Below, in pieces: positions 6,049-46,871 of a stretch of 64,000 bases of DNA. The stretch's first letter is position 1. Every line of letters begins with the position of its first letter. The notes beneath the pieces are model-generated. The model worked only from the letters and a program-made list of their open reading frames with translations, did not search any database and was not told the origin of the DNA. Source of the DNA: Escherichia coli (GTDB taxonomy: Bacteria > Pseudomonadota > Gammaproteobacteria > Enterobacterales > Enterobacteriaceae); assembly GCF_030013595.1 (NCBI RefSeq), contig NZ_CP122770.1; one strand, 5' to 3'. Made by a program: the position numbers and the translations under genes.

Positions 6049-7620
6049 TTACTGAGAGGTCAGATCAACTTTCCAGGGCAACAGATCGCGTACCCGGTTT
6101 GCCGGCCAATCCTGGATATGCTCAATGACGTAACGCAGCCATTTTTCTGGTTCCACATTGTTCAGACGGCATGTGCCGATCAGCGAGTACAACACCGCCG
6201 CATGTTCGCCACCGCTGTCGGAACCCGCGAAGAGCCAGTTTTTCCGGCCTACGGCCACTCCCCGTAAGGCGTTCTCTGCGATGTTGTTGTCGATTTCCAC
6301 CCAGCCATTACTGCAGTACACGTTCAGGGCCTCCCACTGTTTCAGCAGGTATGCGAACGCTTTTGCCGTATCCGAGTGACGCGACAGTGTTTTCATCTGT
6401 TCCTGTATCCAGTCATACAGTGACTGCATCAGTGGAGCCGCTCTGGCTTTTCTTGCTGCCAGACGCTGTTCTGCTGAACATCCCCGGACTTCTGCCTCGA
6501 TGACATACAGTTCACCGATACGCTGCAGGGCTTCCGTGGTGATGTCGGTTGGCACTCTTGCATGCACATCGTGGATTTTTCTCCGGGCATGGGCCATACA
6601 CGCGGCTTCCGTTATTCTGCCGGATTCGTATAACGCCCGGTAACCACCGTAAGCATCTGCCTGAAGCACACCGCTGTAACCGGCCAGGTGATTCTGTGGA
6701 TGGATACCTTTCCGGTCCGGGCTGTACGCGAACCAGACCGCCGGGGGCATCTGTGAACCGGCGTTACGGTCATCACGGACATAGACCCACAGCCGGGCAG
6801 TTCTTGTTTTACCACTGCCCGGCTCCTGGACCGGAACGGGGATATCATCCGCATGGACTTTACCGGGCATCAGCACATACTGGCGCAGCACGTCATACAG
6901 CGGCTCCAGCAGTTCAGCAACGGCACCGGTCCAGCGCCCCAGCGTGGCGCGGCTCAGTTCCACGCCCTGACGAAGGTATATTTCTGACTGGCGGTATAAC
7001 GGCAGATGGTCTGCATACTTCCCGGTGACGATATGAGCCAGAAGCCCCGCTCCGGCATAACTGCGTGCAATGGGTTTTGAAGGTACTGGTGCCTGCACGA
7101 TATGGTCGCACCGGCAACAGGCCAGTTTCGGACGTTGTGTTTCGATAACCTTAAAAGCGCTGCTGATAAGCTCCAGTTGCTCTGACACATCACACCCCAG
7201 AGGACTGAGGTCACCACCACAGGCCGGGCAGCATTCCTCTTCCGGCCGGATGACCCGGGTTTCACGGGGAAGTGAGGCCGGTAACGGCTTACGGGCTGAA
7301 GACTGGCGCAGGGCGGATGGCAGTACCGGGTCATATTGCTCATCCAGCGTTTCCGCCATTTCTTCCTGAAGTGCGCTGATTCGCTCCTGGGCTTCCTGTA
7401 TCTGCCGTTCGGTTTTAGCGCGAAGTTTTTCTGAGCTTTTACCGAACTGCATGCGCTGCAGTTTCGCAACCAGCGCCTTCAGCCGGTTGATTTCGGAAGC
7501 ATAAGCCGCCACCCGCTGTGAGAGCAGGCGGTTGTATTTCGCCATCTGGCGGATGGTGTCCTGTTGCGTCTGCAACAGTGCCCGCAGGCGGGCATTCTCA
7601 TGAGCAAGTGAGGTGTCCAT
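6049..7620 (-). CDS. tnpC: IS66-family transposase TnpC
   Basis: 523-aa protein with the zinc-finger-like CCPACGG..CCRCDH segment and conserved central and C-terminal regions typical of IS66 TnpC. Confidence 0.9.
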
Positions 7621-9283: not shown

Positions 9284-11164
9284 TTAAATACCCCAGAACT
9301 TATTCGCTTTTTCCACAAGCGATTCATCAATCAGCGCACCGGTGACAGCCATCAGTAAACCATACCCGATAATGCCTAAAGCGCTTCCGGTAAGAATACT
9401 GAAGACCAGTGCAACAAGAGCCGTTGCGGCATTGCCTGCTATAATGGCTTCTGTTTTAACAAAAAGAGGACGCCAGTTCTCTGTCCGGACAGCCTTACCA
9501 AACTCAGTGATCCAGTCAGCAAGACTTGTAAATTTTCCTGCATATCCCAGTCCCCGACTGAATCTGTTCAGATTAGACGATATATCAGACAGCTTCACAG
9601 ACTCAAGGGCTGCGGCAATCGCTGCACGATCTTTTGCATTAATTTTTTTGTTAATGTCAGCCCGGTACTTTTCATACGTTTTTAATGCCTCTTCAACATT
9701 ACGTATTTTCTTCCCTTTAGCCTGCCCGGCCATCTCTCTGGCTAACTGCTCAGCTTTTGCACCATATTTTTCTGAAACTGATTTCAGGAACTCTGTTGTG
9801 AAATTAATTGCGTCTTTCGTTGCCTTCAGTTCATCCTGTTTTCTTTTCTCTTCCGCTATCTTCTGATTGATGCCGGCAAGCTGGTTACGGATATTCTCTT
9901 TTTCCTTCAACAGGGCATTAAGAGCGTCATTTGCATGCTTTTGCTCATTTGTTCTGGCACTGAGGTTATTTCTCGCCGAATTTACCGCAGATTCAGCAGA
10001 GGTGATTTTATTTCTGGCATCAAGCAATCGTTGCCGTAACTTATCCCATTCAGCAACTTCAGCATTATAAATTTTCTTGTCACCTTCCACATCCTCTGTC
10101 ACCACCGGATTCCGGTCATTCAGAATATTGCGTTTATAATCCAGACCGGAATGGGTCAGAAGATAATTCAGGTTTGCACGGTTATCGATGACTGCGCTGG
10201 TTGTGATTTTTATCGTACCGGCAAATCTCGGATCACCGCTCACAACAATAGAATGATTTGTTGATGAACGCCCCGGGAATTTTTCAGGGGAAACTATCGT
10301 TTTGCCGTCAGGCGTGTTTTTCTGTTGCGTCAGCTGTTGTTCAGCTCTGGTTAATGCATTACGGGCCGTGTTAAGCGATTCCGTCACTGAACTGAGTTTA
10401 TTCCGGGCCTCTGAAATGGCCCTGTCATTCCGTGTCTGCTGCCCGAGCAGACGGGCCTGTTGTGCATCAAGAACGGCAAGGGCTGCCCCGCCATTTTTTT
10501 CCAGCTCTGACAACCGCGTGTCCAGAATACCTTTTCTGCGCTCGTATTCAGCAAGCATATCAGCGGCCTTCTTGTCTGCGTTCTGCGCATCCTTCTGCCG
10601 TTTTTCAGCCTGTTCGATTAACGACCTGGCCTCCCGGGGAGATATACGAAGAGAATCAGCATCAGCAAACAGCATCCGGCTCTCTGTATGCAGCCGGAGG
10701 GCATCATATCCGGCGATTTCAGTACGGAATCCGTATTCTCTCAGCTCTGCCTGCAGGAGTCTGAACTCCTGTCGTGTAATATCAGCGGCATCTGCGTTTC
10801 CGGCACGGAGTGTTTTCAGTGTGTTTTCATCTTTTTCCCTTGCAGCAATCGCCGCAGAGAGGCGTTTTCCGGCTTCAGTACGCTTATTCTCATTCTCTTT
10901 CTGCTGCGCGCTGAGCGTGTTTTTGTACGCTGTGATTTCCTTGTCCCTTTTTTCGATATCACTTCGGGTTGGGGAATCATCAACCCACTCGTTTCCGCCC
11001 CAGATGGTTTTGTTCCCGAAGGAACTCCATGCAGGCGGGGTACCATGAAAGACATCGACACGTGGAGGGTTTACATAAATATCAACGGCCATAATTTCAT
11101 GGCCATCTGAATCATACCCCAGCGATTCTGCACCGGGATTTGTAATACGTACAGGGTCAGACAT
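9284..11164 (-). CDS. cia: Colicin Ia (or Ib) pore-forming bacteriocin, 626 aa
   Basis: Full-length match by recollection to colicin Ia/Ib: N-terminus MSDPVRITNPGAESLGYDSDGHEIMAVDIYVNPPRVDVFHG, long coiled-coil central region, C-terminal channel domain with hydrophobic hairpin ..AGNAATALVALVFSILTGSALGIIGYGLLMAVTGALIDESLVEKANKFWGI. Confidence 0.95.
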   Translation of the reverse strand: MSDPVRITNPGAESLGYDSDGHEIMAVDIYVNPPRVDVFHGTPPAWSSFGNKTIWGGNEWVDDSPTRSDIEKRDKEITAYKNTLSAQQKENENKRTEAGKRLSAAIAAREKDENTLKTLRAGNADAADITRQEFRLLQAELREYGFRTEIAGYDALRLHTESRMLFADADSLRISPREARSLIEQAEKRQKDAQNADKKAADMLAEYERRKGILDTRLSELEKNGGAALAVLDAQQARLLGQQTRNDRAISEARNKLSSVTESLNTARNALTRAEQQLTQQKNTPDGKTIVSPEKFPGRSSTNHSIVVSGDPRFAGTIKITTSAVIDNRANLNYLLTHSGLDYKRNILNDRNPVVTEDVEGDKKIYNAEVAEWDKLRQRLLDARNKITSAESAVNSARNNLSARTNEQKHANDALNALLKEKENIRNQLAGINQKIAEEKRKQDELKATKDAINFTTEFLKSVSEKYGAKAEQLAREMAGQAKGKKIRNVEEALKTYEKYRADINKKINAKDRAAIAAALESVKLSDISSNLNRFSRGLGYAGKFTSLADWITEFGKAVRTENWRPLFVKTEAIIAGNAATALVALVFSILTGSALGIIGYGLLMAVTGALIDESLVEKANKFWGI

Positions 11165-11442: not shown

Positions 11443-12789
11443 TCAGTACCTGAGATGCATAAAAACACCGTACATATGTTTCTTAAAAGGGGGATGATCG
11501 TTATCCAGCCATTTCGGTGGATCGGTATGCAGAACACCAATCTGCTTCATGCCGGTATGCTGCCTGGATTTTCTCGCGCAGTAATCACTGTCTTCATATC
11601 CCATCGTTTCGATGACCACTCTGGCCGTCTTTCCGTCAGGAGCCCTTGCTGTGACAATGAAATCCGGCAGTACATATTTCTTTTCACCATTAACATAAAC
11701 TTCTGTATCAAACAGGGGCCTTTCCAGACTTAATTCCGGCGTACCTGGCTTTCTTTTAAGCCAGCTGGCCACATTCAGAAGAGCAGTGAGCGTGTTTCGT
11801 TCCAGTTTGCTGTCCACAGGCACCGGACATGTCAGTTGATAAAGAGCATGAGCATACCCTTCACTGCAGATGATTCTGCCATCGGCACTCCGGCAAAAAG
11901 CAAGAATAACCCAGTAAGGGGGACGTATTCCGCCCTGCGCTTCACCATTAATACTGATCCCCCGCACAGGTCTGATGACCTGAATATTACCGTTCGCCCA
12001 GTGAATTTCCACAGCATCACGACAGATGTGCTGCGCCATAAAAATCTGAAAGAACATATGCTTTCTTCTGGCAGGCCAGTGTCGTTCTGAATTCTCCAGC
12101 GTTTCCATTAACCGCTCCTGAGACCTTTCAGACATTCCTGGCCGGAAATGGATAATTTCAGATAAGGCTCTTCCCCGAATATACTCCTGCTGTAGTGTAA
12201 CCTGCCGTATGGCATCAAGACACTCACGATAATTAGTCCGGATACGGGGATTAGCCAGGGAATCCAGTTTATTCAGCCCTGCATCTTCAATAAGCGACAG
12301 GAGTAAACGGCCAAGGCGCGGACGTTTCTTGCGAACGGAGGAGCGCTCACCATTATGGTAAGCAGAGCGGGCCTGCAGTCTGATAACAGAATTACTGTCA
12401 TCAGGTGGTAAAAAGTTTCTGTAATTTATACGGGTGCTAACGGGATGCCGGCTTGCTCCGAAGGATGTTTCCTCTTCATTTCCGGATAACTGACGATACA
12501 TGGGGCATTCAGGTGCATGCTCATGATTAAAACTGGACAGATAAAGAGTACCCGTATTGTTTTTAAGAGCAGCAAAATTCATGGCCGGCGAATCTCCCGG
12601 AATACAGTCACACTGTAACCATGCATCATACTCACGCATTTCCCGGAGAAGAGCATTGGCCAGGTTATGTTGTGCCATGGTTGCTGGCCTTTTCAGTCCA
12701 CAGACCGTCTTTACTGCAGTCTCTTCCTCACTGCTAAGCTCCCGAATCACTTTGCCCCGGGGATTCTTCTTTACAAGTATCATTGGCAT
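11443..12789 (-). CDS. Hypothetical 448-aa protein with a Cys/His cluster and a possible nuclease-like C-terminal region
   Basis: Long ORF with GGAG RBS before ATG at 12789 (MPMILVKK..); motifs CDCIPGD and HEHAPECP; C-terminal YVLPDFIVTARAPDGKTARVVIETMGYE loosely resembles a restriction-endonuclease-like core; no family assigned. Confidence 0.6.
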   Translation of the reverse strand: MPMILVKKNPRGKVIRELSSEEETAVKTVCGLKRPATMAQHNLANALLREMREYDAWLQCDCIPGDSPAMNFAALKNNTGTLYLSSFNHEHAPECPMYRQLSGNEEETSFGASRHPVSTRINYRNFLPPDDSNSVIRLQARSAYHNGERSSVRKKRPRLGRLLLSLIEDAGLNKLDSLANPRIRTNYRECLDAIRQVTLQQEYIRGRALSEIIHFRPGMSERSQERLMETLENSERHWPARRKHMFFQIFMAQHICRDAVEIHWANGNIQVIRPVRGISINGEAQGGIRPPYWVILAFCRSADGRIICSEGYAHALYQLTCPVPVDSKLERNTLTALLNVASWLKRKPGTPELSLERPLFDTEVYVNGEKKYVLPDFIVTARAPDGKTARVVIETMGYEDSDYCARKSRQHTGMKQIGVLHTDPPKWLDNDHPPFKKHMYGVFMHLRY

Positions 12790-16896: not shown

Positions 16897-17928
16897 CTAG
16901 TGCGGCGGTGGGGCAGCCAGCGTCAGTTCAAGCTGACGCAACTCCCTGATGGCCAGTCGCTTCAGATGGTCATCGGAACAAAAATAGGCTTCATCCGGCG
17001 GCAGACGCTTCCTGAGATATTCTGCCATCTCATGAATCTGCTGGTCGGCAGGCAGTTTCTTCAGGCGTCTGGCGCGCTTACTGGCTGCTGCTTTCGCACG
17101 ACGGTGTTTCAGCGCATCCTGACTGCGCTGCAGATACCAGCGTTTTCTGGCCGCATGTACGGAGATATCTTCATCCTCACGCAGAACACCTTCCCGAATG
17201 AGCTGCTGGCGGATTTCACTTTCACGCAGTCGTTTCTGCTGCTGTTCGTGAAGTTTTACCATGTCGACGCCCAGCATCTGCCAGCCTGCCGGTGTTATCC
17301 AGACGTAACGAGGCAGACGCTGGCGGGTTTCACGGTCCCACAGGGTTTCATCTGAAACACCCAGCACACCAAAACGTACCTGTTCGGCCAGCAAACGGGA
17401 AAGGCGGGAGACCGTCACTTCCAGTTCCGGAATAACCTTCCCCTTGCTGTCTTTCGGGCTGATTTCTCTGGCCAGACGGGAAACACTCATGCCTACGGTA
17501 TGTGTGCCCGCATCACTGAAGCTGACCAGAACCGGCCAGACGGCATCGAGGAGGCGTTGTTTTTCCGGACGGAAAGCATATTTGCGACCGGCATACGTTC
17601 GTTTCTGCACGTAAAAAGGATGCAGAGACATGTGCATGCGCAGGCTCTGCTCGCCGGTCACCGGGTCCTTTTTCACCAGACGGTTGTAGGCGTGCCCGAG
17701 CTGCCCGCTCAGCGCCTTATAGCGCTCAGGACGATACCAGGACGGATTTTCGCATTTGGGTTTGGTGGAGTGCTCACCACGACGACGCTTCGTGCGCTTC
17801 CTTTCCGGTTCAACCAGGAAAGTGGTCGCCCTTCCCGCTTCATAGTCTTCCCAGAAACGGATCTGCTCTTCGGGTGCTAACTGACTCCAGTGTACTGCGT
17901 TATATGGAGTATTCTTCAGACCTGCCAC
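16897..17928 (-). CDS. repZ: RepZ replication initiator (IncI1/IncFII RepA1 family)
   Basis: Characteristic RepZ sequence (..GLKNTPYNAVHWSQLAPEEQIRFWEDYEAGRATTFLVEP...); no in-frame ATG near the 5' end, so the start is placed at the GTG at 17928 next to the repY stop; exact start uncertain. Confidence 0.9.
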   Translation of the reverse strand: MAGLKNTPYNAVHWSQLAPEEQIRFWEDYEAGRATTFLVEPERKRTKRRRGEHSTKPKCENPSWYRPERYKALSGQLGHAYNRLVKKDPVTGEQSLRMHMSLHPFYVQKRTYAGRKYAFRPEKQRLLDAVWPVLVSFSDAGTHTVGMSVSRLAREISPKDSKGKVIPELEVTVSRLSRLLAEQVRFGVLGVSDETLWDRETRQRLPRYVWITPAGWQMLGVDMVKLHEQQQKRLRESEIRQQLIREGVLREDEDISVHAARKRWYLQRSQDALKHRRAKAAASKRARRLKKLPADQQIHEMAEYLRKRLPPDEAYFCSDDHLKRLAIRELRQLELTLAAPPPH

Positions 17929-18005
17929 AAGCTGTCGCTTATGGCGGAGCGATTGTGCCGTGTATTTATACACTGCACAGGGTTGAATCTCTGGTACGGT
18001 TTCAT
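17916..18005 (-). CDS. repY: RepY leader peptide (29 aa), translationally coupled to repZ
   Basis: ATG at 18005, MKPYQRFNPVQCINTRHNRSAISDSLWQV, stop TGA at 17916-17918 overlapping the repZ 5' region, as expected for the IncI1 repY-repZ arrangement. Confidence 0.7.
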   Translation of the reverse strand: MKPYQRFNPVQCINTRHNRSAISDSLWQV

Positions 18006-33654: not shown

Positions 33655-35236
33655 TTGAGCGTTACACACGACGCAATACAACCTGTCTTATGCTCGTATT
33701 TGTACCATTTGCGTGAACCTGCTGGGCTCTCAACTACCTGGCAGTAGTGGGCATCCTCTGCGTTGCCCACTCTGGCAATGGCACAGAAGTCGAATTGCCC
33801 CAGATAACCTGTGGTGGAAAGCTGAGTAACTTTGAGTTTTCCACCTATTGTCCCCACGTACCGGATTGGCACGTAGGCCAGTGCCAATCCGGTCGGTGGT
33901 CAGGGGGTAATAAAATTAATTACTCAGCATGTAATTGGTACAAATCATCCGTAGCAATGAATCACTTTATCGGCGGTAAGAGTGGTGGTTCGATCTATTA
34001 CAAGCCGATTCAATGTCCGACTGGATACATTATGACTGGAACACGCATGTACGGTATTGGTGATGGTGTTGATGAGGAACATGTCGATGCCTACTGTTGC
34101 CCCTTTAATTAAGCTCCAGCACCAGGAAGATTGAGGCATGTGACTGATATGGTCCCACCAGACTCATAATTTCCCCAAGCATAATTACTCACATACCAAA
34201 CGTTGTTTTGGTCGGAATATACCTGTTGAAAACCACCAAAGGGTGAGCCATTCAGGTAAGTCCATGAGCAATATGCATGGACCCCGAGCCTTAAATTACG
34301 AGTGTTTTTAGCTATGTTGTAGGTCTGCGTTGTGAATTGAATTTTAGGAGCGCCCCAGGTACCGGATTGGCACGTAGGCCAGCAGCGCCAGCAATTTAAT
34401 CTCAGTTCTGACACGCGACGACATAACTACATTTTCCGGTTAAATCAGCTCTAAATGTCCCTTTATGGAAATTGTATTCATCATAAAAACCACATTTAAC
34501 AATTCGATTTGCATCATAAGTTGCAACTGATCCTGCAAAGTAATTCGGCTTCCAACCTTGAGGGTTTTCTGCATTGCTCACACTCCATGAGCACTGACTG
34601 GCAGAAAACCCTGTTGGCAGCGGTATTTGCTGACCATTTGCTATACGACCAGTTATCACCGTACTACCAGAATTGCTTTTACGCCAAGTACCGGATTGGC
34701 ACTGGCCTACGTGCCAATCCGGTACCTGGAGAAAGGTAGGATCTGGTGAGCTTCAAATTGCTACAGCACAGGCCACAGGTTGGCGCTTTCCTGGAGCAAC
34801 AGCTACCTGTCCAACTGGAAAACGTGTTACAGGTGGCGGCGGAATATGCACCTCACGAACTGGTTACATATGGCTTACCAGGTCATTCCCATCAGCCAAT
34901 AACTCATGGTCGGCTGCGTGCGATACAACCGAAGATCAGAATGGTTCAATAACTGTATATGCCATTTGCCAATAAGCTATTTCAAGCAAGTAATCTTCAT
35001 AAAGTAGGACGAATACTGTGTGTAGTTTTTGGCTTGCCAAGTCATCTCGCCGTTAGAGTCAGGCATGTCAATAGGAACGACTTCTGTTTCTGCCATTTCA
35101 CGCCCGTCAATACGATAGGTGTTAATACACAGTTTAAACCTCCCTAAGACCTGTGTGTTTTTGGGATATAACGTAAATGTTTTTATATTCGTCCATATCG
35201 ACGCTGATGATGATTTCCAGGTACCGGATTGGCACG
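33300..35236. other. Shufflon: multiple-inversion region with seven 19-bp sfx repeats carrying alternative pilV 3' segments
   Basis: 19-bp repeats GTGCCAATCCGGTNNNTGG at 33300(+), 33854(-), 33880(+), 34356(-), 34684(-), 34711(+), 35218(-); every ORF in the region begins in-frame at a repeat (CQSG(T/R)W...) and so represents an alternative PilV C-terminus. Confidence 0.9.
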
Positions 35237-35286
35237 CTTGCAGAGAATGATTGTTGGCATTATTTTTTGCCTCTTTTGAGGTTAGC

Positions 35287-36441
35287 ATGCCGTCTCCACG
35301 CATCCGTAAAATGTCCCTGTCACGCGCACTGGATAAGTACCTGAAAACAGTTTCTGTTCACAAGAAAGGGCATCAACAGGAGTTTTACCGGAGCAATGTT
35401 ATCAAGCGATATCCCATTGCCCTTCGGAATATGGACGAAATAACAACCGTTGATATTGCTACATACAGAGACGTTCGTTTAGCAGAAATCAACCCCCGAA
35501 CGGGTAAACCCATTACAGGTAATACTGTACGTCTTGAACTCGCCCTTCTGTCATCTCTGTTCAATATTGCTCGTGTTGAATGGGGAACCTGTCGTACTAA
35601 CCCGGTTGAACTGGTTCGCAAGCCGAAAGTATCCTCCGGACGAGATCGCCGGCTAACGTCTTCAGAAGAACGTCGCCTTTCTCGCTATTTCCGCGAAAAA
35701 AATCTGATGTTGTATGTCATTTTCCATCTTGCCCTTGAGACAGCCATGCGGCAGGGCGAAATACTGGCCTTACGTTGGGAGCACATTGATTTGCGCCACG
35801 GTGTGGCTCATTTACCTGAAACCAAAAACGGTCACTCACGGGATGTTCCTCTGTCCAGACGTGCCCGTAACTTTCTTCAGATGATGCCCGTTAATCTCCA
35901 CGGCAATGTTTTTGATTACACCGCATCCGGCTTTAAAAATGCCTGGAGAATAGCCACACAACGACTTCGCATCGAGGACCTGCATTTTCACGATCTACGG
36001 CATGAAGCAATAAGCCGCTTCTTCGAACTGGGTAGCCTGAATGTAATGGAGATTGCTGCAATATCAGGACATCGTTCCATGAATATGCTGAAACGGTATA
36101 CTCATCTTCGTGCATGGCAACTGGTCAGTAAACTTGATGCCCGCCGGCGGCAGACACAAAAAGTGGCAGCATGGTTTGTGCCGTATCCTGCCCATATCAC
36201 GACCATCAATGAAGAAAATGGGCAGAAAGCGCATCGTATTGAGATCGGTGATTTTGATAACCTTCACGTCACTGCCACAACGAAAGAGGAAGCAGTTCAC
36301 CGCGCCAGTGAGGTTTTGTTGCGTACACTGGCCATTGCAGCACAGAAAGGCGAACGTGTCCCATCTCCCGGAGCGTTACCTGTTAACGACCCTGACTACA
36401 TTATGATTTGCCCTCTGAACCCGGGCAGCACCCCGCTGTAA
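35287..36441 (+). CDS. rci: Rci, shufflon-specific tyrosine recombinase
   Basis: Tyrosine recombinase catalytic residues (R..HDLRHE..H..Y); start MPSPRIRK gives 384 aa; directly adjacent to the shufflon. Confidence 0.9.
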
Positions 36442-40201: not shown

Positions 40202-41016
40202 AAGCACTCACCTCTCTCATTTTGCCAGTAATACTGCTTACTGGTTGTTCTTCTTCCCCTACCATCTCGCCAGGTGGTGTCAATACGCCACCACCTGACA
40301 TTAATGCATGGCTTAAACCACGAAGTGAAAAGCCGGATAGTCTGTCAGAAACACGCTGGAAAATGCTGACCGACGCAGGTAAAACGCTTGGATTTCGTGG
40401 TGGCAAGGCTCAGCGTTCATGGGAGCTGATTCAGGCACTCAACGCCCGGGAAAGCACACTTAATGCCTTATACGATTTCCGGCCACTGATTAGCCCGGAA
40501 GGCTGGCTACCTCCGGTTATTGATGAAGCACAGGACGTAGCTCATATCACGCCAGATCAAATCCGGACCTCTTCCCGGGTCTGGACCATCATTCGCCCTG
40601 AACGCTTTGTCAGCAATCCACCGGGCTGGCGTGACTGGCTTCTCCGGGGGCTTTCAACAACAGCCACTCCGGGTACAGAAGGCAGCGTCGTTCCAGAAGA
40701 CAGCTTGCAACGAAAAGTGTGGGAAACCGCATTACGGCAGGGATGGCAGGAAGGAAGACAAAACGCCGACCTGACGCTTGAAGCCAACCAGAAAACCCTC
40801 ACCCGTGATTACCGGGGCATGATGCTGTACTCACTTCTCTGGCGTCAGGGCATGATCACCCGTCCGGATGTTTCTGATCAAATGCAAACCGTTACAGGTG
40901 ACGGGAAAAAACTGGTTACTGGAGATCGTGTTCGTCGCCTTAAAAATCATGCGGAATTCAATCTTCAGAAATCTCACTGGCGTCCGCTTACAGGCACTGA
41001 AGGAGGCTCCCGATGA
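40198..41016 (+). CDS. traI: TraI, lipoprotein (DotC-like)
   Basis: 272-aa protein with lipobox LTGCSSS; coupled to traH. Confidence 0.75.
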   Translation: MKALTSLILPVILLTGCSSSPTISPGGVNTPPPDINAWLKPRSEKPDSLSETRWKMLTDAGKTLGFRGGKAQRSWELIQALNARESTLNALYDFRPLISPEGWLPPVIDEAQDVAHITPDQIRTSSRVWTIIRPERFVSNPPGWRDWLLRGLSTTATPGTEGSVVPEDSLQRKVWETALRQGWQEGRQNADLTLEANQKTLTRDYRGMMLYSLLWRQGMITRPDVSDQMQTVTGDGKKLVTGDRVRRLKNHAEFNLQKSHWRPLTGTEGGSR

Positions 41017-42161
41017 ATATTCCTGATGAGTTTGGTCTTTTTCCATTTCAGCGTTTCACAGCAGATGAACTACGGCATTTCTTTGTCTGGTGTGCCGCAC
41101 ATAAAGTCAGTGATGTGGATCTGACCGGTGGGTCACCAGTTTCTGTCAGTCGCTTTGGCCGACGGGTGCGTTGTTCCAGTGCAACGTTACCAACCACACT
41201 CATGTCCTCCCTGATTGATGAACTGTTCGGTCGGGAAGTCATTCCCCGTGTTCTGGCAGGCAATCCGGTTGACAGGACGATACAGATTAACGGGGATGCA
41301 TCCGGTCGCTATGGTCTTAAACGCGGAGAACGCATCCGGTTACGCTCTCACCTCATTCAGGGCACATCTGGTGCGGAGGAGAAAGCAATATCAATAACCA
41401 TGCGTGTCATCCCGACAGAAATACCGGACATCCTCTCCATGAACATTGAACCAAACCTGCTTGAAGCAATGGTCTGCAAAAGCGGTCTGGGATTTGTATG
41501 TGGTGAAACAGGGTCAGGAAAATCAACGCTGTGTGCAGCACTGTACTGTTACATTAAGAAGAATTATCCCAACGCCAAAATCGTGACATATGAAGACCCG
41601 GTGGAATATATCCTGGGAAATGAAAACGATCTGCTCCCACCGCATCAGGCAGAAATCGGGCGTGATGTGGCCAGTTTTGCTGCCGGACTGCGTTCTGCTG
41701 TACGACGTAATCCCGAAATTATCGGTGTCGGTGAAATCAGGGATAACGAAACCGCCGACGCAGCGGTACAGGCAGGCAACACCGGGCATTACTGCCTGAG
41801 CACCATGCATACGAAATCTCCTGGTGAAACGCTGGCACGTCTTCTTGGGCTGTTTCCCCCTGTCATCAGGGATTCGATGGCCTGGGCTGTCCTGTCACTG
41901 TTGCAGTTCATTCTGGTTCAGGTTCTGGTCAGAACAAATGACGGTGGTCGTAAAGCCGTCCGGGAATATATCGTCATTAACGATGAGCTTCGCGACAATC
42001 TTTCCGGAATGCCACATGCAGAGTGGGGGCATCACATTGATGCCATAATCCGGCAGGAGAAGCGCCGTATCCGGGACCAGATTCTGGAAATGTATATCCG
42101 GAATGAAGTTGACCGAAGAGAAGCGATTCTTTTTATCCCGCCAGGGGAGTTACGGTCATGA
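41013..42161 (+). CDS. traJ: TraJ, PilT/DotB-like secretion ATPase
   Basis: 382-aa protein with Walker A GETGSGKST and PilT-family architecture. Confidence 0.85.
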   Translation: MNIPDEFGLFPFQRFTADELRHFFVWCAAHKVSDVDLTGGSPVSVSRFGRRVRCSSATLPTTLMSSLIDELFGREVIPRVLAGNPVDRTIQINGDASGRYGLKRGERIRLRSHLIQGTSGAEEKAISITMRVIPTEIPDILSMNIEPNLLEAMVCKSGLGFVCGETGSGKSTLCAALYCYIKKNYPNAKIVTYEDPVEYILGNENDLLPPHQAEIGRDVASFAAGLRSAVRRNPEIIGVGEIRDNETADAAVQAGNTGHYCLSTMHTKSPGETLARLLGLFPPVIRDSMAWAVLSLLQFILVQVLVRTNDGGRKAVREYIVINDELRDNLSGMPHAEWGHHIDAIIRQEKRRIRDQILEMYIRNEVDRREAILFIPPGELRS

Positions 42162-42448
42162 AAAGAGAAGGTTTCTGGCGATATGCAACACCGCCAGTCA
42201 ACATCCAGGGCGTACCTCTGCCGTTCACCATGATTTATCTGTTTATATGCCCCTTTCCCTCCAAAACAACCTTCTGGATTTGCACCGGCATCATTTTATT
42301 TTTCGTTATTCTCGACCGTTCAGGCTGGACTGTCAGGACGATCTGTACTCGCATTTTCAGCATTCTGAGAGGGGCCATCGCCTCCGGTCGTCCATGGTGG
42401 TATCGCCACCATACGGAATCACCACGAGACTGGACTGGCCTCGATTAA
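42158..42448 (+). CDS. traK: TraK, small inner-membrane protein (IcmT-like)
   Basis: 96-aa hydrophobic protein coupled to traJ. Confidence 0.65.
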   Translation: MKREGFWRYATPPVNIQGVPLPFTMIYLFICPFPSKTTFWICTGIILFFVILDRSGWTVRTICTRIFSILRGAIASGRPWWYRHHTESPRDWTGLD

Positions 42449-42462
42449 ATTCTGGAGTCTTT

Positions 42463-43014
42463 ATGTCAGGTAAAAAAACTATCGTTACTCTGCTCCGGGT
42501 ATCGCTACTGGCATGCCCGTTACTGTTCACGACACCATCGTTTGCAATGATCGACACGCCATCCGTGAAGGTCGGCTTTTCTCCTGAAGGAAGCGCATCC
42601 GCTCTGGTGCTTGACACAATCAACAGTGCGGAAAGCTCCATCAGGATGATGGCATATTCCTTCACCGACCCGGATGTAATGCATGCGCTGGCAAAAGCGA
42701 AAAAACGCGGAGTGGACGTCCGTATTGTTGTTGATGACAAGGGGAATACGAACCGGGCAAGTCAGGAAGCGATGAAATATATCAACCTGCTGGACATTCC
42801 TCTCCGGACTGTAGATGCCTTCCCCATCCATCACGACAAAGTCATCATTGTTGACGGAAACACGGTTGAAACTGGCTCCTATAACTTCTCTCGTGCTGCT
42901 GCACGCAAGAATTCAGAGAATGTCGTTGTGCTCAAGAATATGCCGGATGTAGCCGCACAATATCTTGAACACTGGCAGGATCGCTGGAATAAGGGTACAG
43001 ACTGGAGACCCTGA
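42463..43014 (+). CDS. nuc: Nuc-like periplasmic endonuclease of the phospholipase D (HKD) family
   Basis: Signal peptide then HKD motif HHDKVIIVDGNTVETGSYNFS (HxK-x4-D-x6-GSxN); GGAG RBS 7 nt upstream of ATG 42463. Confidence 0.8.
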   Translation: MSGKKTIVTLLRVSLLACPLLFTTPSFAMIDTPSVKVGFSPEGSASALVLDTINSAESSIRMMAYSFTDPDVMHALAKAKKRGVDVRIVVDDKGNTNRASQEAMKYINLLDIPLRTVDAFPIHHDKVIIVDGNTVETGSYNFSRAAARKNSENVVVLKNMPDVAAQYLEHWQDRWNKGTDWRP

Positions 43015-43103
43015 CAAACATTTCTCCCCCGATTTTCTATCCCCCCAGCCACCCCCGGCTTCCGGCGGTGGTTTTTTTCCGTCTTTTTTCAGGAGAAGCA
43101 CTC

Positions 43104-46100
43104 ATGCCGTCTGTATCCCGCTACCGCACCTGGCTTGCCGTGCCTGCAGATGAAATAGAAGATCTCAAAAAAGCACATCCCCCGATGAACGGGCACACGC
43201 CCGTCATCTGGGACAAGGAGCACAAACTCTGGTTCGCCCGCCCGGGGGCGGACCTGTCCAGGCTGGACCGCTGGCTGCCCCGGCCACAGGACGTCTCCAT
43301 GAACGGCAGTGATCCGGTCACCGAGTTTGCCCAGGTTCTGGAGAATGCCGGACTGGTTCTGAAAGAACTGCCGGTCATGGACGGGAAAATCCACCGTGTC
43401 CCGACCGCCGATGACAAAAAAGGACAAAAAAGTGGCGCATATCGCGGATTCCTGGACGGCAGACCTGCCGGCTGGTACAGGGATTATCGCAGCGCGGATA
43501 ATTCGCCGATCACCTGGACCTTCTCCGGCGGAGAACAGACAGATCCCCGCGCAAGACTCCACCTGAAAGCGCATTCAATGCAACGCAGGGAGGACGCGGA
43601 GCGGGAACTGAAAGCACAGTACAACCGACAGGCCGCGTATGCCCGCCGCTATATCAACAAATGGCCGCAGGCCACAGCACATGAATACCTGACCCGGAAA
43701 GGCATTCAGGCTGCACCGGGGGTGCGGGTAAACAACAAAAATGAACTGGTTATTCCCTTCAGTAACCGTAACGGCGCGATACGCTCTTACCAGCGTATTC
43801 CGGTCACCGGGGGGAAAGATGCCCGCATCCTGATAGATTCGGAGAAAACCGGTAACTGGTTTGCGCTGGGCACACCGCGCAACGGTCAGCCGGTACTGTT
43901 TGCCGAGGGCTATGCCACTGCGGCCTCCCTGCACGAAGCCACGGGCCTTCCGGTACTGATGACGGTGGATGGAGGCAACATGATTGCCGTTGCCGAAAAT
44001 GCCCGGCAAAAGTGGACGCAAAGCCCCTTTATCTTCTGTGCCGACAACGATCATGCAATCCGGGTTAACAAAGGTATCGTCAGTGCAACAAAAGCCGCAG
44101 AACTGACAGGAGGATCGGTCATCTTTCCTGCGTTCACCGATGCCGAAAAAGCGCAGGGGCTGACCGATTTCAATGACCTGGACGCAAGCCGGGGACGGGC
44201 CGCTTTTCAGCATGTCATCAACGCCCAGTTAGAACACATCGGGGTTTCCACCCCCAACAGTAACACCCCGGAAATGCGCGAGGCACTGGTGATAGGCAAC
44301 CTCGTTTTTACACCGGTCCACAGTGAGGAAAAAACCATGACTCCGACAGAATATCCTGAAACATCACCCGATACAGGGCACAGCCATGACCAGGGACCTT
44401 CTCTGCCGTCCGCCACACAGCAGGAACAACCAGCTGCTTCCAGCAGTAACATTGCTGATGAAACACAGTCATTTACCAGTCACGCCACTGAAAATAACGG
44501 CAAAGATGAGCGGCACGCTGATAACGTTCAGGCGCAAACGGAAAGCTCTGTAGTTCAGGACTCCCCTGCAGAATCACCGGCGTCCCCGGAAAGTACAACG
44601 GCGTCTGCCCCTGATGAACCCGCTCATCCGGCGGAACCTCCGGAAAAAGTTGTCTCGGTGGCCACAGATAAAGACTGGCGTGAATTTGAAGCTGAACTGT
44701 CACAACCGGAAAAAAACGAGTCACAACAGGAATCCGGCACTTCACCTGAAATACCGGCCCCTGCTGCCACCACCGCATCCCCTGAAGACAGTCCCTCATC
44801 TGAAACCATGAATGAATCAGCCGAGCCATCACCTTCCCCTGATGCAGTCAAAGAGGAAATGACCGTGATGACGGAACCTGATGACAAACAAAGCACCGGA
44901 ATATCCCCGGATACTCCCCGGGAAGAGGCGGTCAACCATGTAACTGAAGACATTCCCCTTCAGCCAGAGCCGTTCCTTCCTGAGTCAGATGGCCCCGAAG
45001 AATACGAAAACTACAGCGCATATCAGGAGCTGATGAACAATGAAAATCCTGAGCATCTGCAGGAAAACAGTGATATGCCGTCGCAACCGGACACAGGCCA
45101 CGTTCAGGCTGATGAGTCAGAACTTCAGGCCACAACAGATACAGTAGAACCGGCTGTCCGGGATGCCCCCACTCCACAGCAACCTGTTCAGAGCACATCA
45201 TCTTCTGATAATACTTCATCGTTTCTCGACAAAGCGCGTGGCTTTTTTACGCGTAAAAAAACGGATTCACAGGCGCATGAGAACAGTGATCCCACACCCT
45301 CACCGGAAACCACGACGACCACACCGGCACCTGACAGTATTGTCTACGCCCCGGAACGCCCTGATGCACCGATATCGCTCAATCTGGACGAAATCATTAA
45401 ATCGCTGGAAGGTGAAGAACGAGCAGACAGAACCGTCCTGTACAAACTGGATGGCAAACCTGCCTTCATTGACCGGGTAAACCGGCTGGAAATGGTCAAC
45501 GGTGCCAGCAATGACGATCGCAGTGTTCTGGCTGCACTTGCTGTGGCCACTGATTTTTATGGTGGTGTCATTGAGCTGACGGGCAGTGATGCCTTTAAGC
45601 AAAAAGCGATGCAGTTGATCATCGAGCACAACATCAAAGTGCGCATGAAATTCCCGGATCAGCGAGCGGCGCTCGAAAAATTACGCAAGGAAATGGCTGT
45701 CGGTAAAGATACTGTTGTCACCCATAAGCCAACACCGGAACTTAACCGGAATACCCCTGAACAACCAGCAGTCCCAGACCCTGTTCAGGAAAAAGAAGCC
45801 ACACAATCCCCGGCGTCCCCAGTAGCCCCTGAAGCATCAACCGTCAGCACCGTCCCTGCATCATCACCGGCTGAACCTGGCAAAACGGCAGATGCGGCAC
45901 AAGGTGAAGAACCACCAGGAAAACTTCGCCCGGGAGAGAGCGTGACTGCCGTACTGCACAATTTTGGTCGTGCTGAATATGCACCCGGCAAAGGAGAGAG
46001 TTTCTTTGTTGAGCTTAAAAACCGCAGTGGCAGCAAACTCTACTGGGGGGAACAACTGGAAAGTCTGGTCAAAAACCATCAGAAAGGTGACGTGGTGACA

Positions 46101-46871
46101 CTGACACTTCAGAACCGCGAACAATTCATCCTCCCGGGAGAGCAAAAAGCACGTTTCCGGAATAAGTGGTCCATGGAGTCAGTTACCAACGGGATCTCGG
46201 TATCACATGATAATCCGGATAAAGGTCAGCGTATTCAAGCGATTCCGGTCGAAACCTTTATGAAAGTGGCTGCGCAAATCAGCCAGGGGTGGCCCGAAGA
46301 GATGAAAGCGTTACGTATGCCAGAAAACGTCGGCTCACATCTGTTTATCGGTGAAGACCGACATCCGGTCTCCGCGCCACAGAACGCAAATCAGGTAACA
46401 GAAATAACCAGCGCAGCCCCTGACAAGCTGACACCTGTTCTGGGATCAGTGGATAAGGATACGCGTGAACTCAACCTGCTACTTGTCCAGAGTGCCGATG
46501 AACATCTGCAGGGTGTGGTCCGGCTGAACGGCACATTGTATCCGGCACTGGCCACCCCATCAGCCGACAACAGTCAGCTGGTTATCAATGCGCTGACCGA
46601 CAAAGGTTTACGCTTTGCAGGTTATGGTGAAGCGGTAAACCACGATGCTGACAGCACGAATCGCCCCGCACCGGAGCTTATGCAGTTTCATCTGAAAACC
46701 CGGGAAGAACCGCTTTTTGCTGCTGTCTACACGCCGGAAAAACAACCTGATGCGTTGTACCGGAACCTGGGCTTCGAGCAGTCATGGCAGCAGTGGTCCA
46801 ACAGCCAAAAGCCGGAGGACAGGCAGGAAAAAACTCTGCATCAGGATCTCTCCCACAGCCCCGGCCGATGA
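43104..46871 (+). CDS. sogL: Sog DNA primase (SogL; the in-frame short form SogS is not delimited)
   Basis: About 1255-aa protein with N-terminal primase region and a long acidic Pro/Glu/Ser/Thr-rich linker; AGGAG RBS before ATG 43104; conserved position between traK/nuc and traL. Confidence 0.85.
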   Translation: MPSVSRYRTWLAVPADEIEDLKKAHPPMNGHTPVIWDKEHKLWFARPGADLSRLDRWLPRPQDVSMNGSDPVTEFAQVLENAGLVLKELPVMDGKIHRVPTADDKKGQKSGAYRGFLDGRPAGWYRDYRSADNSPITWTFSGGEQTDPRARLHLKAHSMQRREDAERELKAQYNRQAAYARRYINKWPQATAHEYLTRKGIQAAPGVRVNNKNELVIPFSNRNGAIRSYQRIPVTGGKDARILIDSEKTGNWFALGTPRNGQPVLFAEGYATAASLHEATGLPVLMTVDGGNMIAVAENARQKWTQSPFIFCADNDHAIRVNKGIVSATKAAELTGGSVIFPAFTDAEKAQGLTDFNDLDASRGRAAFQHVINAQLEHIGVSTPNSNTPEMREALVIGNLVFTPVHSEEKTMTPTEYPETSPDTGHSHDQGPSLPSATQQEQPAASSSNIADETQSFTSHATENNGKDERHADNVQAQTESSVVQDSPAESPASPESTTASAPDEPAHPAEPPEKVVSVATDKDWREFEAELSQPEKNESQQESGTSPEIPAPAATTASPEDSPSSETMNESAEPSPSPDAVKEEMTVMTEPDDKQSTGISPDTPREEAVNHVTEDIPLQPEPFLPESDGPEEYENYSAYQELMNNENPEHLQENSDMPSQPDTGHVQADESELQATTDTVEPAVRDAPTPQQPVQSTSSSDNTSSFLDKARGFFTRKKTDSQAHENSDPTPSPETTTTTPAPDSIVYAPERPDAPISLNLDEIIKSLEGEERADRTVLYKLDGKPAFIDRVNRLEMVNGASNDDRSVLAALAVATDFYGGVIELTGSDAFKQKAMQLIIEHNIKVRMKFPDQRAALEKLRKEMAVGKDTVVTHKPTPELNRNTPEQPAVPDPVQEKEATQSPASPVAPEASTVSTVPASSPAEPGKTADAAQGEEPPGKLRPGESVTAVLHNFGRAEYAPGKGESFFVELKNRSGSKLYWGEQLESLVKNHQKGDVVTLTLQNREQFILPGEQKARFRNKWSMESVTNGISVSHDNPDKGQRIQAIPVETFMKVAAQISQGWPEEMKALRMPENVGSHLFIGEDRHPVSAPQNANQVTEITSAAPDKLTPVLGSVDKDTRELNLLLVQSADEHLQGVVRLNGTLYPALATPSADNSQLVINALTDKGLRFAGYGEAVNHDADSTNRPAPELMQFHLKTREEPLFAAVYTPEKQPDALYRNLGFEQSWQQWSNSQKPEDRQEKTLHQDLSHSPGR

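Follow-up and report, generated by a model that had tools for sequence, protein, structure and literature searches.

The gene between traK and sogL of an IncI1-type Escherichia coli plasmid is the known nuc gene, which encodes a predicted exported endonuclease of the Nuc type

Why do conjugative plasmids by the thousand retain an exported DNase that lacks sequence specificity, although neither transfer nor, in pOXA-48, stability depends on it? This old question is raised by a short gene at positions 42463–43014 (plus strand) of the window, the 64,000-nt stretch of Escherichia coli DNA from contig NZ_CP122770.1 that was analysed here. The gene is nuc of IncI1 plasmids, which has long been known under this name and has been studied before; it is present as an ordinary, typical allele. 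The complete reading, in which the gene is the orthologue of nuc of R64, ColIb-P9 and pESBL, with close homology to Nuc of pKM101, and in which its product would be an exported DNase with an accessory role in the periplasm, is held with high confidence.

Translation of 42463–43014 gives an intact, uninterrupted reading frame of 183 codons, which is followed by a TGA stop codon and corresponds to the IncI1 'EDTA-resistant nuclease'. A ribosome-binding site (GGAG, 42454–42457, plus strand) is located 5 nt before the ATG of nuc and 5 nt after the stop codon of traK (42446–42448). The gap between this stop codon and the ATG, read directly from the sequence, is thus 14 nt. A longer open reading frame of 303 amino acids (42103–43014, plus strand) shares the frame of nuc and was rejected as a gene model. 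Its additional 120 residues have no Pfam hit and overlap the end of traJ and the complete traK gene, which are read in a different frame. Furthermore, the homology to Nuc starts at residue 33 of the short form and all database annotations start at 42463. The longer frame is regarded as an artefact of ORF calling. Two antisense reading frames (42357–42740 and 42520–42834) have no Pfam hit either and were treated as shadow ORFs.

The product contains one full PLD motif, HDKVIIVDGNTVETGSYN, at residues 124–141 (42832–42885, plus strand; regular expression H.K.{4}D.{6}GS.N). This HxK(x4)D(x6)GSxN motif comprises His124, Lys126, Asp131, Gly138, Ser139 and Asn141, and its HxK (residues 124–126) is the only one in the protein. 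The Pfam profile PLDc_2 (PF13091) is matched over positions 2–132 of 132 with an E-value of 1.1e-27 and 96.9 bits (cut-off 27). Motif and profile score, which is above the gathering threshold, place the product in the PLD superfamily. Among solved structures, the best sequence match is PDB entry 1byr, which aligns without gaps to residues 33–182 (E 5.1e-63, 215 bits). Both matches far exceed chance. The sequence identity to pKM101 Nuc (PDB entries 1byr and 1bys) is 67–68% and all active-site residues are retained.

The product was aligned with the homologues of three IncN-type plasmids, one IncFII(K) Klebsiella plasmid and one Salmonella diarizonae plasmid. In these six proteins His124, Lys126, Asp131, Gly138, Ser139 and Asn141 are invariant, as is the stretch Asn150-Ser-Glu-Asn153, which includes Glu152. 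The alignment equates His124, Lys126, Ser139, Asn141 and Glu152 with His94, Lys96, Ser109, Asn111 and Glu122 of 1byr, which we take to be the active-site residues of Nuc. The Nuc enzyme family was reportedly crystallised in 1999.

The AlphaFold2 monomer model of the nuc product has a mean pLDDT of 80. Residues 1–24 are modelled with pLDDT values under 50, in keeping with a signal peptide. A Foldseek search with this model ranks 1byr first, with a TM-score of 0.94 (target-normalised) and an r.m.s. deviation of 1.6 Å over 152 aligned columns at 67% identity. Helicobacter pylori NucT, Zucchini/MitoPLD and FAM83 follow far behind with identities of about 20%. Identity across the mature domain, active-site residues and fold assign the product to the Nuc-type single-HKD endonucleases. 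The sequence-only reading had proposed a PLD-family nuclease with a complete HKD motif, located between traK and a primase gene. The motif is confirmed as a single full copy, the nuclease assignment is borne out as a prediction by the resemblance to the characterised Nuc endonuclease, and the gene lies between the two named neighbours (traK at 42158–42448, sogL at 43104–46871).

Since the PLD superfamily also includes lipid enzymes, the product could be thought to modify phospholipids, as a phospholipase or a cardiolipin-synthase-like enzyme, and not to be a nuclease. Cardiolipin synthases and 'mitochondrial cardiolipin hydrolase' (MitoPLD/Zucchini) are indeed matched, but weakly (E-values of 1e-6 to 1e-9, compared with 5e-63 for Nuc). 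The protein has a single HKD domain, not two, and PMC5714352 describes even Zucchini as a nuclease. A lipid-modifying function is therefore exceedingly improbable. Zucchini/MitoPLD (PLD6) and DrmC of DISARM systems share the single-HKD PLD fold that dimerises into one active site. They are distant relatives (about 20% identity) with other cellular locations and partners, and the nuc product, which scores below the family cut-offs, belongs to neither family.

Within the Nuc family, the protein shares with Nuc of the IncN plasmid pKM101 the HKD motif together with the active-site Ser, Asn and Glu residues, a mature length of 155 residues (as predicted here) and, for the predicted signal peptide, a final xFA. 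Both genes reside on conjugative plasmids and are positioned after a gene for a VirB11-type ATPase. In contrast to pKM101, which has a transfer system of the MPF_T type, the type IV secretion system (T4SS) encoded here is MPF_I and traK is inserted between the ATPase gene and nuc. pKM101 Nuc additionally has a C-terminal extension of three residues, and the sequences of the two signal peptides are unrelated.

The nuc genes of R64, ColIb-P9 and pESBL-EA11 are the same gene in the same position (traK-nuc-sogL). This location in an MPF_I transfer region and the near-identity to named nuc genes identify the gene as IncI1 nuc. nuc of pESBL-EA11 (11483–12034; E. coli O104:H4) is 98.4% identical at the DNA level, and the two proteins differ in two non-catalytic residues (Q101R and A119V). 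PMC4288162 lists these coordinates, 11483–12034, in its Tn-seq table under 'EDTA-resistant nuclease, Nuc'. Depositors have labelled the gene 'conjugative transfer endonuclease' (pPIMMR) or 'nuc: EDTA-resistant nuclease' (LC567097, LC567070 and LC567064), and the protein identity to nuc of LC567097 and LC567070 is 98.9–99.5%. PGAP assigns the label 'phospholipase D family protein', which is carried by the records with 100% protein identity. The allele is identical to that of many IncI plasmids of E. coli and Salmonella.

The sequence-only reading had also placed a signal peptide in front of the nuclease domain, and the N-terminus does have the three-part layout of a Sec-type signal peptide. Residues 1–28 (MSGKKTIVTLLRVSLLACPLLFTTPSFA; 42463–42546, plus strand) comprise a basic n-region (Lys4, Lys5 and Arg12), a hydrophobic core (Val13–Phe22; Kyte-Doolittle mean over nine residues up to 2.4) and a c-region (TTPSFA) that fits the −3/−1 rule, its residues at these positions being Ser and Ala. 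Cleavage by signal peptidase I is predicted after SFA, at Ala28. It would leave a single-HKD PLD-fold domain of 155 residues starting with Met29 (residues 29–183; 42547–43011, plus strand; 17.3 kDa and no Cys according to ProtParam). The crystallised mature chain of pKM101 Nuc (1byr_A) also has 155 residues and begins immediately past the aligned AFA of the IncN homologue. From these features and from homology we infer that the product is exported to the periplasm via the Sec pathway. The charged Arg12 lies within the N-terminal hydrophobic stretch and Cys18 follows LLA in a loosely lipobox-like arrangement; the exact processing site is therefore uncertain.

A lipobox follows the pattern [LVI][ASTVI][GAS]C and is preceded by an uncharged hydrophobic stretch (six residues in the PROSITE-type rule). 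The sequence LLAC at residues 15–18 is a loose fit to this pattern, and the product might thus be a lipid-anchored nuclease of the periplasm, processed by signal peptidase II and lipidated at Cys18, instead of a soluble one. H. pylori NucT, according to PMC5714352, is a periplasmic protein associated with the membrane. However, the −2 residue of LLAC is Leu and not Ala, Ser, Thr, Val or Ile, and Arg12 lies inside the six residues that should be uncharged, so that about five hydrophobic residues remain before the Cys. Cys18 is not conserved among the IncN homologues, and the alignment with mature pKM101 Nuc favours cleavage after SFA28. Because of Arg12 in the preceding stretch and the lack of conservation of Cys18, a lipoprotein is improbable and a soluble periplasmic protein is preferred.

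H. pylori NucT (PDB entry 6ehi) resembles the predicted soluble nuclease in its single-HKD PLD fold and its periplasm-targeting signal, and it is cation-independent (PMC5714352). The identity is only about 22%, and the best score against the NCBIfam equivalog for Helicobacter NucT is 50.8 bits (cut-off 297), which places the nuc product outside this group. NucT has features of its own: it contains an extra basic loop, prefers single-stranded DNA, is chromosomally encoded and has been linked to competence and to the salvage of purines.

The window contains the backbone of an IncI1-type conjugative plasmid with the standard IncI1 transfer region. The gene order is traE-F-G-H-I-J-K, nuc and sogL, and continues with traL-M-N-O onward. 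Pfam and NCBIfam models support the neighbours (DotD-like TraH, T4SS_TraI, the T2SSE-type ATPase TraJ, IcmT/TraK and the Toprim/LPD7 primase). The upstream gene traK (42158–42448, plus strand) is annotated as traK in pPIMMR and matches the IcmT/TraK family model NF038220 of NCBIfam (E 1.3e-9) with 38.1 bits, just under the 40-bit cut-off. The downstream gene sogL (43104–46871, plus strand) has matches to Toprim_3, LPD7 and DUF5710 in Pfam and is annotated as 'conjugative transfer DNA primase'.

This neighbourhood bears on the possibility that the product is a cytoplasmic anti-phage nuclease of the PLD type, comparable to DrmC of DISARM or to DpdK. The DrmC models of PADLOC match with up to 61 bits, and NCBIfam gives E-values of 1e-12 for DrmC and 4e-4 for DpdK. 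These scores miss the curated cut-offs by far (48 versus 133 bits for DrmC, NF038319; 20 versus 100 bits for DpdK), whereas the match to Nuc (215 bits) is far stronger. Partner genes of DISARM or Dpd (drmA, drmB or a methylase) are absent from the surroundings, where all neighbours are tra genes, and the predicted signal peptide points to the periplasm. Score and missing partners set the product apart from DISARM DrmC, and a cytoplasmic defence nuclease is scarcely credible here. A predicted exported endonuclease of the Nuc type remains the preferred assignment.

A promoter scan found no sigma-70-like promoter on the plus strand between traH and nuc, and there is no terminator in this interval either. 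The sole promoter hit near nuc is on the minus strand (42336–42308), and shuffled sequences give more hits than this region does. Since no promoter-like site or terminator lies in between, nuc is probably co-transcribed with traH-traK.

Between the stop codon of nuc and the ATG of sogL, a GC-rich hairpin (43047–43073) is followed by a run of T (the element ends at 43078, plus strand). RNA folding gives −17.2 kcal/mol with a z-score of −3.6, and none of 200 shuffled sequences folds as well. The hairpin is conserved in pESBL, in a Shigella IncI plasmid and in pPIMMR, and the sole substitution within it is in the loop. The scan for terminator consensus sequences missed this hairpin, which was revealed by folding, probably because of an internal C-C mismatch. 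The element at 43047–43078 looks like a candidate intrinsic terminator or attenuator; placed amid the genes of the transfer operon, it may control expression of the primase.

The start of sogL differs between sources, with a GTG at 43068 in the ORF list and an ATG at 43104 in the database annotation. An in-frame ATG at 44337 (plus strand) within sogL is accompanied by a GAGG ribosome-binding site and fits the known internal start of the shorter protein SogS, in agreement with the coordinates that PMC4288162 gives for SogS. A long low-complexity region, acidic and rich in Pro, Ser and Thr, makes up the middle third of SogL.

Elsewhere in the window, a shufflon of the R64 type (33850–35245) follows the pilV region. 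A repeated inverted site of about 19–30 nt with the core GTGCCAATCCGGT is found at 33852, 34353, 34682/34702 and 35215, and the adjacent recombinase-sized ORF (35251–36441) is rci by position. Positions 1–22000 are an accessory and maintenance region with ParA- and integrase-like genes. On the minus strand, it contains an IS66-family transposase-sized ORF (6049–7620), a colicin Ia-sized ORF (9284–11164) and a replication initiator (16897–17973). At least 80% of this region is covered in one place by only five plasmid records; thus, its composition is much more mosaic than that of the tra genes.

A segment of 1.6 kb around nuc is found in 1370 plasmid records; the identity is at least 99% in 1023 of these, and 1327 are typed as conjugative. 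The hosts are nearly all Escherichia, Salmonella, Shigella and Klebsiella, and the matching records that were inspected are typed MOBP/MPF_I. Searching the plasmid collection with the protein (tblastn) extends the distribution to at least 5000 plasmid records with nuc homologues, at least 4533 of which are typed as conjugative. This agrees with the earlier statement that such nucleases occur on several conjugative plasmids. Among the matches listed, the plasmids span IncI, IncN, IncF(K) and others, and the hosts include Klebsiella, Escherichia, Salmonella, Enterobacter, Citrobacter, Serratia, Pseudomonas, Yersinia and more.

Gene order was compared between the window (41013–43014) and loci from three IncN (MPF_T) plasmids (L004, 1934–3462; L005, 2000–3525; L006, 1977–3525). 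In the IncN plasmids the nuc homologue is directly downstream of the gene for the VirB11-type ATPase or overlaps it. In the IncI1 plasmid (MPF_I), nuc follows the VirB11/DotB-like traJ plus traK. Accordingly, in the handful of loci inspected, the neighbourhood of a VirB11-type ATPase gene is common to two types of mating-pair formation. In one IncFII(K) plasmid the homologue adjoins repA, and in IncL/M plasmids it is located after parB, outside the tra region (PMC6112013, PMC8125031).

One IncI plasmid, pESBL-315 (NC_024980.1; locus L011, 2987–4440), retains just the first 39 nt of nuc. The annotated genes from nuc through traP are absent, which corresponds to a large deletion that begins in nuc and extends to sequence upstream of traQ. 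A specific natural loss of nuc was therefore rejected for this plasmid. As the deletion removes essential tra genes, its typing as 'conjugative' is doubtful.

Compared with the variants of pESBL and the Shigella IncI plasmid, nuc has a dN/dS of 0.09–0.11 (Nei-Gojobori), a value based on small counts of 7–8 synonymous and 2–3 non-synonymous changes. For the homologues of the IncN-type and Salmonella diarizonae plasmids the ratio is about 0.15–0.17, with synonymous sites saturated. These low ratios indicate that nuc is kept by purifying selection, although its knock-outs have no known phenotype.

The sequence-only reading had called the role of these nucleases poorly understood, and the published results support this view. 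Tn-seq of pESBL from E. coli O104:H4 showed that, of the genes from traH to traY, nuc alone can be lost without impairing transfer, and nuc, traS and traH are the genes named as non-essential in R64 (PMC4288162). nuc of R64 is a named gene upstream of sogL and its inactivation is without effect on transfer (PMC6112013, PMC8125031). By analogy with these orthologues, for which this has been shown, nuc of the present plasmid would be outside the essential transfer machinery. For pCTX-M3, a review describes a role of nuc, just downstream of parB, in the stabilisation of unstable vectors (PMC8125031). This effect was not reproduced in pOXA-48, a close relative of pCTX-M3, in which deletion of nuc left stability unchanged (PMC12365149). 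When the literature was searched for functions recently attributed to Nuc of plasmids, only these two stability results were returned.

The stabilising effect in pCTX-M3 is the basis for the proposal that Nuc helps the plasmid to be inherited stably by assisting partition or multimer resolution. In addition to the negative result for pOXA-48, IncI1 nuc is located in the tra block and not beside par genes. Furthermore, a protein exported by its signal peptide cannot reach plasmid DNA in the cytoplasm. A stability function is for this reason very improbable.

How the exported endonuclease would act can be derived from pKM101 Nuc. PMC5714352 describes the latter as a metal-independent (EDTA-resistant) DNase, active on single- and double-stranded DNA, that forms a phosphohistidine intermediate and a homodimer with one active site. 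It also reports a two-histidine mechanism in the dimer and a groove that fits double-stranded as well as single-stranded DNA. Export, dimerisation and activity of the product encoded here are presumed by analogy. nuc would be translated from the traH-traK transcript and the product exported by Sec and cut after Ala28. The mature subunits of 155 residues would then homodimerise, as in pKM101 Nuc, so that the two single HKD motifs form one active site. His124 of one subunit would attack the phosphodiester of the DNA and become covalently linked to it as a phosphohistidine intermediate, whereas its counterpart in the second subunit would protonate the leaving group and subsequently activate a water molecule. 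Such a reaction needs no metal ion, which would explain the EDTA-resistant activity that the gene name 'EDTA-resistant nuclease' implies for the IncI1 product. Single- and double-stranded DNA would both be substrates and cleavage would proceed without sequence specificity.

Most likely, Nuc is a putative accessory DNase of the periplasm that is made alongside the mating apparatus and destroys periplasmic DNA. The dimer would degrade DNA that reaches this compartment, whether stray, foreign or abortively transferred. A small benefit from its destruction would suffice to keep nuc under purifying selection. Among the possible roles, we infer a ranking with a guard or scavenger of periplasmic DNA first and a conditional role in mating next; a function in stability is unlikely.

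In the second of these roles, Nuc would act in conjugation under special conditions, such as matings in liquid or in biofilms where extracellular DNA is abundant, matings with particular recipients or the clearing of T-strand DNA leaked from the channel. Standard filter or plate matings would overlook such a contribution. The embedding of nuc in the transfer operon, 14 nt after traK, the ATPase neighbourhood shared by IncN and IncI1 plasmids and the purifying selection are all consistent with this proposal. On the other hand, neither the Tn-seq of pESBL nor mutation of R64 revealed a transfer defect (PMC4288162), and homologues on IncL/M (PMC6112013) and IncFII(K) plasmids are found outside the tra region, after parB or beside repA. 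A conditional mating role is thus a tentative and rather unlikely explanation, and the general periplasmic DNase is preferred.

The allele at 42463–43014 gives no new handle on why conjugative plasmids keep Nuc. A speculative extension of the preferred periplasmic role, put forward with low confidence, is that Nuc forms a periplasmic barrier which is deployed together with the T4SS and destroys DNA entering or crossing the periplasm of the donor. The targets may be injected phage genomes, transforming DNA or strands from competing conjugative elements. This proposal fits the adjacency to VirB11-type ATPase genes in two unrelated types of mating-pair formation, the presence of homologues in at least 5000 plasmid records and purifying selection without a transfer phenotype. 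If it is true, Nuc would be a plasmid-borne factor for competition or defence at the cell envelope rather than a transfer protein.
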